Shown in pieces: positions 13,831 to 53,378 of a stretch of 64,000 bases of DNA; positions within the stretch are counted from its first letter, which is position 1, and each line of letters starts with the position of its first letter. The stretch lies in contig OX597825.1 in assembly GCA_951406725.2 (NCBI GenBank), positions 54,188,001 to 54,252,000 on the forward strand, given 5' to 3'. Source of the stretch: Octopus vulgaris (Eukaryota). Under the pieces are notes generated by a model. It saw only the letters and a list, made by a program, of their open reading frames with translations, was not told the origin of the DNA and made no database searches. A program made the position numbers and the translations under genes.

Positions 13831-15635
13831 AAAATAATTCATATGTATGTGAATATATATATATATATATATATATATATATACACACAAAAAAAATTAA
13901 TATCTGATGAGTATCTTCCAGATTTCGTCTACGAAGTCTACTCAGAAGGCATTACTCAACCCGAAAAAATAGTAAAAGATATTTGTGCAGTTTTCCACGC
14001 AATGTGACGGAACTTGAAAACATGTGGTTGGAGAAGCAAATTTCTTTGTATACAGCCATGTCTACGGCTATGTTTGTCACTACAGGCGCCTTTTCGTTTT
14101 CAGATATGTGAATTCATTATAACTTGGTGAACTGAAACATGTGGAAAACAAGTGTTCGTATGAGAAATACAAGAAAATATTTTATTCTGGCCTTCATCTC
14201 TTTCCGGAGATAGAAGTTTGTAATCAAAGGCTTTGATGCCATCATAAACACTTGTACATTATATATGTGTTACAATATTAATCAAAATATATTTGTATCT
14301 AAACAGTATTGTATTTATTGTTGATTTATTCACTAATATGGTTCTTATACCATAACTTTAATATACATAGAGGAATGAAAAGTAAAGAAGTTTCTTAGGG
14401 GTTATGGACCTAAATTTTAAAAGTATGGTCATGTGAAAAGTTTAGCATAATGTCTAAAATTTATTAGATATTCTGAAAGGTTCTTATTACTTTAGAAAAA
14501 CTACTTGGTATTTGATGTATGATAATTCAAATAATTTTATGTCTTGTATCTTCAACAATAGACAACTATCAGCCGAAACCTTGTAACTGAAATTCGTTAA
14601 TGAGAATTGTGTACAAGCCGTCAAAAGCATGGAATCACTTATCGTATGTCCACATATATAGAACAACTTAACTACCTCCAAGTACGTATATATAACATGT
14701 TCTAAGCCGGAACAAAAATCCTCGCTTAACTCTAACTGATGACATATGTCAAAGATTCTGCTGATTAACATTTAAGAAGGACCAGTTTAGTGTGTCATTA
14801 TTTTACACTCCTTCGTGAGCACAATGACCTCAAAACAAGTGCCAGGGACATAATTTTATTTGCGAACATAAAATAATATTTCTCAGTATTTATATATATG
14901 GGTTAAGAATGACATAATCAATGGTATTGATTTCAACATGTTAATCACTATTTACAAACAAATCGAATTTAGTATGATCAACGAAAATAGTATTCCATCC
15001 GATGAGCGAAGAATATCGTTTAATAAACATGCTACTTTTTTTTTATGTGCTACTTATAGTTTCATATCCTGAGAACATGACTAACAATGTTTTATAACAG
15101 GTCTGACATCTTGGCACAGTCATCAGGCACAGACCACATCGTATAATGAACTAAAAATGGAATGAGAGAGGAAACGAGAAAGGGTGAGATGGAAGTATAT
15201 AGAAAAAGAAGAAGGATTAAAAAGCGGAACATGAGAAAGTAATCTGAAAGAAACAAAGGGAGAAAAGTGTTATCTCCCTTAGACAGTAAATTATAATGCT
15301 GGAAAAATGGTGGGTTAGAGTTTATGGTACAGTTATTAATCTGATAGAGGAACAGAAAGAATATATATATTTATATATACATTCATGTCCTATATATTGA
15401 TAAAAATGGTTAGACAACAAAAGAATGAAAGAGACCTCGATATTATATATATATATATATATAATAAATATTAGGGAATGAATCCAAAATTACAGGGAAA
15501 AATCAGATTTAGGGTTAAATCCAATTTTATAGTAAAATATTATATAATATAATTCGAGACAAAACCACTATTTTAAAACCAAACAAGGAAAGACTTAATC
15601 AATACATAAAATTTTAATATAAATTAAATAAACCG

Positions 15636-15679
15636 CCACTACAAATGTTTCATGTCTGCTACCGACAATCTTCAGGTGG
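15636..15679 (-). ncRNA. minimal type I hammerhead ribozyme (mirror copy)
   Basis: exact reverse complement of 15735-15778. Confidence 0.8.
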
Positions 15680-15734
15680 ATTTTCGATCTTCTAATCAGT
15701 ATCAAATTTTGAAGTTGATTAGAAGATCGAAAAT

Positions 15735-15778
15735 CCACCTGAAGATTGTCGGTAGCAGACATGAAACATTTGTAGTGG
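15735..15778 (+). ncRNA. minimal type I hammerhead ribozyme
   Basis: ccac-CTGAAGA-t tgtc ggtagca gaca t-GAAAC-attt-GTA-gtgg: stem I ccac/gtgg, stem II tgtc/gaca, short stem III; predicted cleavage after GUA (A15774). Confidence 0.8.
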
Positions 15779-17149
15779 CGGTTTATTTAATTTATATTAA
15801 AATTTTATGTATTGATTAAGTCTTTCCTTGTTTGGTTTTAAAATAGTGGTTTTGTCTCGATTATATATATATATATATATATATATATATATATATATAT
15901 ATATATATATATATATATGTATGCATGTATATAAGTATGTATTAATACGACCGACTGAGTATGGTGGAAACTTCATTTATCACAGATATCGTTTCAGCAT
16001 AAGGGCTAAGGAACGATTTAATGGATTTCAGTGCAACCCGCAGTGTAGAAATACTGGTACACTACTAGGAATATACCCAAAATGAAGTTTGGATGCAAAA
16101 TTTCAAATTTCAAATCTAAGCTTATACATGCATATATACATACATATATACATACATACATACATACATACATACATACACACACACACACACATATATA
16201 TATATATATATATATATATATATATATACAGATATAAACTAACACACATATATGTGAAGTGTTTGAGAGAAACAGAGAGGAGATGAACTGCGTGGGTTTC
16301 TGAGAGAAATGTGAATATTATCTAAGAATCTTTGAATTTCTGTGAATTCTGCAACGATAGATATCAGTAGCTAATTCTAAATGATAGCACAAAAACATTC
16401 AAACAACTATGAATAATTACCATACGTATATATATATATATATATATATATATATATATATATATATATATATATATATATATATATATATATATATATA
16501 TATATATATATATTTATATATTTATTTATTTATATTTATATCTATATACACATAAAGACATTGAGAGAAAAAGATAGAGAAGGAGACTGAGAAAAGGAGC
16601 TTTTCATCATCTGTCTTTGTCTATTTTCTCATCTCATGAAAGATACAGTCGTCTCCACATCTGTGACACCGCAAAGAAACTAAATGGTGGACAAGCATAC
16701 TAATGGGGAAATTCGGTAAAAATTCCACTGGAAGATATGTTTCATAGAAGAAAAAAAAACTATTTCTGTTTGTTCTTACACCGTATCTAAAAAGATAAAC
16801 TACAATTATATAAGAAATCTTAAGGGCGGTAATTTGCTAGAATCGTCAGAACGACAGAGCAAAAGCGTTGCGACATATATCTATTGGTCTTTAAAACGTA
16901 ATTTCAAATCCTGCCGTGTTCAATTTTCTATTTCGGTCTTCTGAGATCGATTAAATAAATTTCCAGTTAAATACTGGAATCTGTAGAATTTGAAGTTTTC
17001 TCTTTCAAAATGTCACATTTACGCCGCTTCTTTTCTTCTATCTCATGATACACCAGAACTGTTGGACTGCCGTTAGGCTTGGGCACAAACGACCAAAGTA
17101 ACCAAACTATAGATGCATATGTGCATTCTTTTATTCTTGTAGTTGTTTC

Positions 17150-17427
17150 AGTCTCTTTTGCCGAACCGCTAAGTTACAAGGAGGTAAACACACCAACATC
17201 GGTTGTCAAGCGATGGTGGGGAGACAAACACAGACATACAAACAAACACACACATATATATATACGACAGGCTTCTTTTAGTTTCCGTCTACCAAATCCA
17301 CTCACAAGACTTTGGTCGGCCCGAGGCTATAGAAGAAGACACTAGCCCAAGGTGCCTCGCAGTGGGACTGAAGCCGGAACCATGTGATTGGTAAGCAAGT
17401 TACTTACCACACAGCCACACTTGCACC
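17150..17427 (-). mobile_element. SINE family A (3' end missing)
   Basis: ctcttttgccgaaccgctaagttac..gggactgaagccggaaccatgtgattggtaagcaagttacttaccacacagcc. Confidence 0.85.
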
Positions 17428-51795: not shown

Positions 51796-52012
51796 ATAAT
51801 AATAATTGATTAAGTAACCAGAAGAGATGGATTTGGTATTAGCTTTGCTTTTATACGACGATCGTTTCGACCCATCCTGTTACTGTCTTTTACGAGTGTC
51901 CCAAGGACTTCCACCCATAAGCAACAGTAGCAGGATGGGTCCAAACGATCGTCGTACAAAATAAAGCCTAATACCAAATCCATCTTCTGGTTACTTAATC
52001 AATTATTATTAT
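51796..52012. repeat. imperfect ~90-bp inverted repeat carrying a partial hammerhead motif, bounded by (TAA)/(TTA)n
   Basis: arms about 51796-51886 / 51924-52012, 37-nt spacer, several mismatches and indels; minus strand gac..gggtc-GAAAC-gatc-GTC. Confidence 0.85.
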
Positions 52013-52719
52013 TATTATTATTATTATTATTATTATTATTATTATTATTATTATTATTATTATTATTATTATTATTATTATTATTATTATTATATACGGA
52101 GAGGGAGAGGGAGAGAAAGAGGGAGGGTAAGAGAGAGAGAGGGACAGACAGAAATAGCCAGACGGACGGACAGGCAAATAAAACAAATGAAAGGTGTACA
52201 AAGAGAGGAGATGAATGTAGAGTGTGATAGAAAAATGGGAAAATTGAACTCGCGGTAGAAAAGAAGAAAAATAAAGAGTAGTGATAGAATGAGATATATA
52301 CATAAGTGTGTGATAAGGATCTATATGTATATGAATACACGTGTTTGATCAAGTTGAAACTAAGTGTGACAATTAGAAATAAAATTCTCATAAAATAGGG
52401 TGATGGTTATGACACAAGGAATGAAAAACATGGTCGCGTAGAGGAGCAGTATGAGAGTGAGGAATTTGAGGTGGGGGAGGGGAGACAATAGAAGCAAAGA
52501 ATTCAAGTGGAGTGGGGAGGGAGGTAATTTGTAAGAAAACTGATTTGAAACTGACAAAGGCATACATACATGAATGGATCCGCATACACATACAACAACA
52601 CGCTTGCACAAACGTACACGAATAAGCACAAACACTTATACATGTGTATGTGTGTAAGTACACATATATATACATATACACACATAAATATATGTACGTA
52701 TATATATATATGTATATGT

Positions 52720-53035
52720 GGAGGCACAATGGCCCAGTGGTTAGGGCAGCGGACTCGCGGTCCTAGGATCGCAGTTTCGATTACCAGACAGGGCGTTGTG
52801 TGTGTTTATTGAGCGAAAACACCTAAAAGATCCACGAGGCTCCGGCAACGGGTGGTGGCGACCCCTGTTGTATTCTTTCTTTCACCACAACTTTCTCTCA
52901 CTCTCACTTCCTGTTTCTTGAGTAACGCTGCGATGGACTGGCATCCCGTCCAGCTGGGGGGGGGGGAAGAACACATACGCCACAGAAACCAGGAGACCTG
53001 GCAGGCTTGAAAAGGGCAACGTTTATCGTTTCGTT
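52720..53035 (+). mobile_element. tRNA-derived SINE family C with Meta/V-domain-like body
   Basis: A box tggcccagtgg, B-box-like gtttcgattacc, then ctgcgatggactggcatcccgtccagc..gccacagaaacc. Confidence 0.8.
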
Positions 53036-53195
53036 TACATATATATATATATATATATATGTATATATATATATATATATATATATATATACATATATAC
53101 AAACTATCACACCCGTATATGGATTTCTATCAAAACATGCATGTAAATATAAGTGTCTGTATATATATATATATATATATATATATATATATTAT

Positions 53196-53378
53196 TTTAT
53201 TTTATAGAAGGAGCTTCTACAGGACTAGAACTGTTTCATTCAAAAAAAAATTTTTTTTTTTTTGAATGAAACAGTTCTAGTCCTGTAGAAGCTCCTTCTA
53301 TAAAATAAATTAATTTACTCTGCTATGTATTGAGTACCTTATTTACTGTGGTTAACCCCGACTCAACCCGGGACCTAC
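53196..53378. repeat. fold-back (46-bp arms plus A9/T13 centre) of a Penelope-like terminal fragment within (TA)n
   Basis: tttattttatagaaggagcttctacaggactagaactgtttcattc / gaatgaaacagttctagtcctgtagaagctccttctataaaataaa; carries a GAAAC-agttcta-GTC half-motif; the right arm continues uniquely to ..gggacctac. Confidence 0.85.

Follow-up and report, generated by a model that had tools for sequence, protein, structure and literature searches.

Head-to-head pairs of Penelope-like element ends in the Octopus vulgaris genome and their possible origin by twin priming

Penelope-like elements (PLEs) that encode an endonuclease (EN) are described as carrying inverted, 5'-truncated copies of their pseudo-long terminal repeats (pLTRs), with palindromes at the junctions, a tail at one end and (TA)n targets (PMC8557442, PMC3846280). 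The pLTRs are reported to contain hammerhead ribozymes (PMC4209133, PMC6765202) and to give rise to non-coding repeats (bioRxiv 10.64898/2026.07.22.740005). The origin of the inverted ends and of the one-sided tail is called undefined in one account (PMC8557442), and self-priming on an antisense template is suggested in another (PMC3846280). Here we describe three fold-backs in a 64,000-nucleotide stretch of Octopus vulgaris DNA (contig OX597825.1, positions 54188001-54252000; hereafter the window), together with the families that they represent, F1, F2 and F3, in the 2.8 Gb microsatellite-rich genome that was searched. With a probability of roughly two in three, each fold-back is a single insertion of a PLE end into a TA-rich microsatellite, in which both cut strands primed reverse transcription of a single sense RNA, from a distal start site in one case and a proximal one in the other, and the cDNA 3' ends were joined head-to-head.

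The octopus pairs share with the published inverted pLTRs (PMC8557442, PMC3846280) a head-to-head 5'-truncated copy, palindromes at the join, an optional tail at one end, (TA)n targets, and a promoter, intron and hammerhead within the pLTR; they represent a known architecture in new families. Relative to the elements as presented in those papers, they are mostly pLTR-only pairs of 200-500 bp that lack an open reading frame (ORF), their tails are ~68-146 nt rather than 30-40, and the one-sidedness of the tail is near-absolute. The F1 copies are mostly spliced, whereas intron retention is a reported hallmark of PLEs.

An experimental counterpart is the Anolis Poseidon PLE, whose protein, a predicted dimer, cuts both strands in vitro and extends them, initiates at two internal sites matching the tail, and uses uncleaved RNA (PMC11167929). 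The likeness lies in the two internal reverse transcriptase (RT) start sites that define the tail, the AT-rich target, the cutting and extension of both strands and the uncleaved RNA template. Poseidon belongs to a different PLE clade, and the paper on it neither treats inverted insertions nor reports a strand difference in start site. In L1 twin and dual priming, as outlined in PMC2837659, the second strand likewise primes internally on the RNA, giving an inversion with microhomology at the internal join. In L1 the position of the internal site varies and the two arms are non-overlapping, whereas in the octopus this position is fixed and one segment is usually present in both arms.

Two kinds of short repeat are also similar. 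Animal non-LTR retrozymes are non-coding short repeats with a type I hammerhead that stem from PLE pLTRs and are described as head-to-tail tandems (bioRxiv 10.64898/2026.07.22.740005); here there are head-to-head pairs and solos, with one direct tandem among the 100 F1 places listed, and the retrozyme assignment was rejected on this orientation. MITEs (miniature inverted-repeat transposable elements), as characterized in PMC8969392, are short, high-copy hairpin elements in a TA context. The octopus pairs lack equal terminal inverted repeats, their junctions are remade at each insertion instead of spreading as a fixed unit, and the partner is an RT/GIY-YIG element, and they were not classed as MITEs. 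Beyond these systems, the octopus families display a long/short rule with almost no exceptions, an F1 template that was sense RNA and spliced, and two arms synthesized independently of each other. Among papers searched by title and abstract, none proposes twin priming for PLEs or a strict long/short rule; subscription papers such as Arkhipova 2006 and Evgen'ev and Arkhipova 2005, and supplements, lie outside that scope and may bear on it.

Three fold-backs and the pairing of long and short arms

An initial annotation of the window reported inverted repeats near 15.7, 51.9 and 53.25 kb, and all three are present close to those positions. They are head-to-head, lie within or adjoin microsatellites, and with simple repeats masked are the only close inverted repeats of at least 100 bp in the window. 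The same annotation saw no sequence common to the three, in agreement with best cross-family matches of 9-38 nt, which do not exceed chance. The single geometry that it ascribed to them stands with regard to orientation and setting, but the arms are asymmetric. Each window pair consists of one long-tailed and one short-tailed arm, and the symmetrical coordinates first given had clipped the long tail; one arm of each pair does run into the microsatellite at the edge originally drawn, but the other continues into its long tail.

The F1 pair is flanked by (TA)n targets at 15444..15463 and 15862..15918. Its long arm (15466..15715, minus strand) is a spliced pLTR copy that is complete to the fixed 5' end of the family, and has a ~75-nt long tail (15466-~15540) and a type I hammerhead motif at 15636..15679, with a core starting at 15675 and a non-canonical 10.1-11.1 pair. 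Exon 1, the 27 nt from the presumed +1 (15689..15715, minus strand), is joined directly to exon 2 with loss of a ~1.3-kb GT-AG intron. The short arm (15716..~15866, plus strand) is 5'-truncated by 17 nt, is also spliced, and ends at the proximal site; its type I motif is at 15735..15778 (plus strand; core 15739, predicted cleavage 15774/15775). The join is at 15715/15716, where the left arm is at the fixed 5' end of the family, 23 nt before the core. In F2, the long arm (51649..51898, minus strand) contains a hammerhead 3' half that begins in a ~70-nt loop II, followed by a ~146-nt long tail, and the short arm (51905..52012, plus strand) contains a 3' half in which the G of GAAA is mutated, and ends at the proximal site; a (TAT)n target lies to its right (52000..52091). 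The F3 pair is between (TA)n targets at 53159..53191 and 53379..53415. The short arm (53193..~53251, minus strand) begins in the stem II loop, with an expanded T-run at the join, and the long arm (~53252..53378, plus strand) has a hammerhead 3' half (GAAAC at 53268, predicted cleavage 53287/53288) and a ~68-nt long tail. A ribozyme or its 3' half had been assigned to every arm; the whole motif is indeed present in both F1 arms, but the F2 and F3 arms of the window have no CUGANGA core.

The long/short arrangement is general within the families, and was counted on retrieved loci. F1 has 839 exact genome matches of a 30-mer, F3 has 5876 of a 28-mer, and F2 has 741 candidates with copies 87-95% identical to the query. 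Positions within the families refer to reference copies of 252 nt (F1, L134), 411 nt (F2, L054) and 483 nt (F3, L089), and the F1 and F3 samples comprise all loci from the first 100 pattern matches of each family in genome order. There are 50 head-to-head pairs and 19 unpaired arms in F1 (50/69 insertions paired), and 50 pairs, one counted twice through a tandem duplication, and 22 unpaired arms in F3; several of these F3 arms are halves of distant pairs, and tail-to-tail neighbours are seen zero times and once, respectively. Nearly all arm 3' ends enter TA/TAT repeats (99/100 in F1 and 97/100 in F3), and each family has two alternative 3' ends, spaced by ~75 nt (F1), ~146 nt (F2) and ~68 nt (F3). 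A pair joins one end of each type in 48/50 cases in F1, the others being short/short (L207) and unclassified with no long/long pair, and in 48/50 in F3, where the two unclassified pairs both prove on reading to have short arms with internal deletions. Binomial p values against independent choice are 9e-14 (F1) and 7e-15 (F3). The rule extends to 18/18 further F1 pairs, to 8/10 further F3 loci (two unclassified), to all 13 classifiable F2 pairs (15 pairs were seen in 28 distinct loci), and to 15/16 F3 pairs whose arms are separated by 1-10 kb; the exception among these, L298, is an interrupted long arm followed by a short-ended piece. Unpaired arms are near evenly divided, with 10 short to 9 long in F1 and 9 short to 13 long in F3. 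Head-to-head pairs occur throughout the families, and a recurrent mechanism due to a retroelement, as first proposed, is supported.

Penelope-like identity and hammerhead motifs

F1, F2 and F3 are three unrelated high-copy families, each being the hammerhead-bearing pLTR end of a PLE. In one F1 element (L316) a tail, a 413-aa RT frame, EN, 3' region and pLTR follow one another on a single strand, and in an F3 element (L302) a 423-aa frame spanning the RT end, thumb and EN lies between the arms, with similar pieces in L298 and L301. Two F2 elements (L091, L092) have an inverted truncated pLTR, coding pieces for the thumb, Cys-linker and GIY-YIG, the 3' region and a forward pLTR, in that order. 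RT followed by a C-terminal GIY-YIG is tied to the same end sequence in all three families by translation and tblastn (EN-side pieces only for F2), and inverted 5'-truncated copies with an optional tail, as expected of pLTRs, are found. No intact full-length ORF was found in the copies examined. Pfam scans give weak matches (PF01541 at E 0.048), and four ORF pieces match no relevant family; a search with the L302 protein finds 434 relatives at E<=0.001, of which many contain PF26215 and none bears a clade name, and its atlas neighbours carry PF26215, PF01541 and PF00078.

CxC-x5-C-x4-C linkers precede the GIY-YIG domain in L249, L302 and L316. A C-terminal EN with a Cys-rich, Zn-finger-like linker is given as a Neptune or Nematis feature (PMC8557442), and by these two characters the elements are predicted to be of Neptune or Nematis type. 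Naiad was considered and rejected, as its EN is N-terminal and it has no hammerhead, whereas the EN is C-terminal and hammerhead motifs are present here. An ORF antisense to the ribozyme was likewise discarded, the ribozyme concerned belonging to the inverted arm.

Other arrangements are seen among these elements. Three F3 elements without an ORF (L163, L185, L238) have 0.8-2.5 kb of mixed microsatellite filler between their pLTRs. PLE-like ORFs of another kind, which have no Cys-linker, occur between F3 arms in L303 (RVT_1, E 2.6e-10) and upstream of an F1 pair in L313, and an open 1039-aa frame, which from its motifs we take to be a LINE-like endonuclease/RT, is located between two F3 arms at L308:4761-7877 (plus strand). 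An F2-like copy abuts an F1 pair within one TA tract (L015/L016), and five long F3 pairs with arms 2-7 kb apart are clustered at C1:76.87-77.21 Mb.

The hammerhead assignments differ in strength. An intact F2 copy (L056) matches Rfam RF00163 at 35 bits and reaches the gathering score, the only one of six loci scanned to do so. In F1 and F3, the CUGANGA core, GAAA, stems I-III and a GUA triplet are all present but the G10.1-C11.1 pair is missing; neither family gives an Rfam match at the gathering score, including the F1 copy L134. In F3 the cleavage triplet is GUA (stem III ACAG/CUGU) and not the GUC initially reported. An Rfam scan of the whole window at E<=1 is dominated by microsatellite matches to miRNA families, with a sub-threshold miRNA match at F1 and no hammerhead among the 150 of 332 matches listed. 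F1 and F3 fold no better than shuffled sequences. For F3 transcripts up to 60 nt the predicted minimum has hammerhead stems I and III, and at 66 nt a hairpin over the cleavage site is predicted to take over (-9.0 versus -7.4 kcal/mol for the hammerhead), again folding no better than shuffles; such a competing-hairpin switch is a lead only.

Arm-specific deletions of 1, 2 and 10-14 nt recur at F3 positions 393-396 (L318-L347), just 3' of the predicted cleavage site and inside the competing tight hairpin, and all 27 deletion loci read are close inverted arrangements. A weaker hammerhead-like motif is present at window positions 15050-15135 (minus strand), 330 nt from the F1 pair, and a fourth hammerhead-bearing family is represented by a solo copy at 22040-22095 (minus strand), with a tail to ~21940, a long loop II and a GUA triplet, ending in (TA)n.

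Pivots, templates and the origin of the paired arms

The hammerhead serves as a pivot only indirectly. The initial annotation anticipated that inversion centres would cluster at the cleavage site or at stem II; none of 200 F1 and F3 arms starts within 3 nt of the predicted cleavage site and 11 start in stem II (one F1 and 10 F3); the stem II pivots correctly seen in the window copies of F2 and F3 are minority cases within their families. Instead, pivots mark the template 5' end in F1 and F3, or a stop just 3' of the ribozyme, and the ribozyme is near them for other reasons, since stem I seems to be where the F3 template begins, and a frequent stop of F1 synthesis lies immediately 3' of the ribozyme. 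In F3, the start of 70/100 arms falls at 347-356, which is the 5' strand of stem I; exact palindromes centred on the stem I AGCT occur at 673 loci. A TATA-like box is located 29 nt before the A of this AGCT in 16/20 distinct upstream sequences, and no upstream exon sequence recurs in 30 non-native, non-palindromic arms; on the box spacing and the lack of such an exon, we read this A as the putative transcription start. In F1, 35/100 arms start within the first 14 nt and 29 loci are centred on a 5' mini-hairpin. A second cluster of F1 starts lies 7-8 nt 3' of the cleavage site, with 17/46 internal starts at 86-87 and a further 20 at 88-105; TTTA-type repeats copied from this position are often inserted there, and 16/50 F1 pairs are without any core. 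F2 pivots are spread from 6 to 324.

In long F1 copies the 5' piece is followed by GT, an intron of 1283-1312 nt (1312 in L316, 1283 in L317) and a pyrimidine-rich AG. Among 57 F1 arms that cross the splice site, 43 are spliced and 12 unspliced, and because the copies are mostly spliced their template was sense RNA. Derivation of the short F1 subfamily by read-through of an older fold-back was rejected, the 5' piece being exon 1 of a spliced RNA. A cap-derived extra G at the F1 5' end is not supported either, as a G precedes +1 in 4/13 arms and three of these are explained by the partner arm.

Where arms are joined directly, microhomology of at least 3 nt is seen at 14/27 F1 and 15/30 F3 joins, against ~7.5% at random. 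Most junctions are unique, and those that recur do so in different subfamilies. TTTA-type or poly-T stutter, attributable to RT slippage or host end-joining, is seen at joins in six F1 loci (L128, L131, L136, L142, L195, L203) and at window positions 53243-53264. We also note two F1 pairs at C2:9033171 and C2:10464329 (L348, L349) that have the same non-palindromic junction and are 99% alike, 1.4 Mb apart, in unrelated flanks; they are the only two in the genome.

The two arms of a pair share a haplotype. The core variant agrees between arms in 49 of the first 50 AGCT palindromes (26 of one form and 23 of the other) against 50% expected, multi-site haplotypes are common to both arms, and arms differ by 1.5% versus 2.9% and 4.3% between loci. 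Splice state agrees in all 17 pairs scorable on both arms (16 spliced and one unspliced; p about 0.001), and also in a distant pair (L314), and spliced and unspliced copies are both present within four haplotypes. Their 5' reach differs in about half of the pairs. With a margin of more than 5 nt, 22 of 100 pairs have the short arm extending further 5' and 27 the long arm, and in 51 the two are equal. In 8/118 pairs the long arm consists of nothing but tail and has no overlap with the short arm, which is the classical, L1-type twin-priming product, the remaining pairs overlapping; target-site duplications are unreadable in TA tracts. A deletion of a single nucleotide, 4 nt past the F3 cleavage site, has 202 matches, and at 27 loci it is in the long arm only (9), the short arm only (14), both (2), beside a different deletion (1) or in a complex locus (1), although such arm-specific lesions may also reflect later mutation or sequencing error in hairpins. 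As a rule the arms were made by separate syntheses, because a self-copying cDNA can neither reach beyond its template nor leave a tail-only long arm.

In the most likely scenario, the GIY-YIG nuclease of the element nicks both strands of the TA tract, and each target 3' end would then prime on one sense RNA, one at the distal and the other at the proximal site. The trailing RT would displace the leading cDNA, such that the overlap is read twice and the segment duplicated; an RT halting at or before the proximal site would give the classical twin-priming inversion. This displacement step needs an RT without RNase H, a domain that PLEs are not known to have. Synthesis of the cDNAs would terminate at the RNA 5' end or at stop sites next to structured RNA, and the cDNAs, having identical sequence, could pair only at palindromes or stem halves, which would draw the joins to the vicinity of the ribozyme with no need for its cleavage. 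The scheme accords with what Poseidon does in vitro (PMC11167929). Of the routes proposed in the initial annotation, the best supported is the one with head-to-head priming from the two strands of a cut TA tract.

Several points weigh against this reading. In vitro, Poseidon is reported to show no strand difference in start-site use and does not by itself predict strict long/short pairing (PMC11167929). Half of the pairs overlap fully to the 5' end, so that one RNA must be read twice with displacement assumed; one F1 pair (L207) is short/short; and L183, with only an 8-nt inverted piece at the AGCT end, implies that a true cDNA fold-back sometimes happens. A few arms are discordant at diagnostic sites (L073, L067), and the concordance of haplotype and splice state could also reflect the use of two RNAs transcribed from a single active source locus, or conversion of one arm by the other at a later time. 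The F3 start-site reading is argued from TATA spacing, and the site is also a YAG, so may be a splice acceptor; the Drosophila Penelope intron is reported to end at helix I (PMC4209133).

The same data can be read with an RT dimer holding two RNAs, each strand copying its own, and an asymmetric complex that forces the distal and proximal sites. Such dual priming, proposed for L1 (PMC2837659), fits the predicted PLE dimer (PMC11167929) and the reported activity of PLE hammerheads as dimers (PMC6765202). It would give full overlap of arms without displacement, as in the 51/100 pairs ending within 5 nt of each other, and accounts for arm-specific lesions and for the rare discordant arms. However, it needs an extra rule to yield one long and one short arm, the splice state matches in 17/17 pairs though spliced and unspliced copies coexist in the same haplotypes, and the long arms that consist of tail only and extend no further than the short site (8/118) are a one-RNA signature. 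We regard it as an unlikely but serious alternative to twin priming on a single RNA.

Considerably less probable is that a cDNA, or an antisense RNA as suggested for PLEs (PMC3846280), serves as its own template after folding at a palindrome or ribozyme stem, with attachment of the second arm to the target taking place at the AT-rich proximal site and possibly involving nuclease resolution. Self-priming, which the initial annotation also entertained, provides the long/short rule and haplotype sharing at no cost, palindromic junctions are common (the 673 AGCT-centred F3 loci and 29 F1 loci centred on the mini-hairpin), and L183 resembles a short fold-back. As a general rule it is contradicted by the short arms that reach further 5' (22/100) and by the tail-only long arms, and a lesion confined to the long arm (9/27 loci) should have been copied, unless later in origin; a minority of loci may have arisen in this way. 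The antisense version is contradicted for F1, where 43/57 arms are spliced, because no sense intron can be removed from an antisense template.

Spread of palindromes as MITE-like units from a few master hairpins, a further suggestion of the initial annotation, is very improbable: some junctions do recur, and L210 and L211 share a non-palindromic one, but that junction occurs only twice in the genome with unrelated flanks, most junctions are unique, the recurring ones fall in different subfamilies, and the unequal ends do not form terminal inverted repeats. Library or assembly artefacts are known to include perfect palindromes, yet this explanation is the least credible, and on internal grounds, from one assembly, appears unlikely given that flanks are not duplicated, arms end at two element-defined sites and differ by ~1.5% in F1 and F3 (visibly more in the window F2 pair), and the same geometry is found with arms up to 10 kb apart around ORFs.

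Returning to twin priming on one sense RNA, a tentative extension, on which we would not rely, is that it is the default route of EN-bearing PLEs, with a dimeric RT reading one RNA twice from two fixed starts and the inverted pLTR and one-sided tail forming a single product. The uncleaved, folded hammerhead region might then be a template boundary at which a telomerase-related RT stops and stutters short repeats, a competing hairpin holding the ribozyme off until copying.

Other features of the window and implications

Among other repeats in the window, a GC-richer one at 52721-53010 (plus strand) has tRNA-like A and B boxes and is presumably a short interspersed element (SINE); ARAGORN reports no tRNA there and no tRNA genes elsewhere in the window. 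A short frame at 58578-58800 (minus strand) resembles what we take to be a non-LTR RT fragment, and matched no RT family in Pfam.

These young, abundant and short families supply hundreds to thousands of clean products of the insertion process. The long/short rule, together with the evidence for a sense template and two syntheses, makes the origin of PLE inverted ends testable in an existing in vitro system. It also follows that many hairpins in this genome that resemble MITEs or miRNA precursors are products of retrotransposition.

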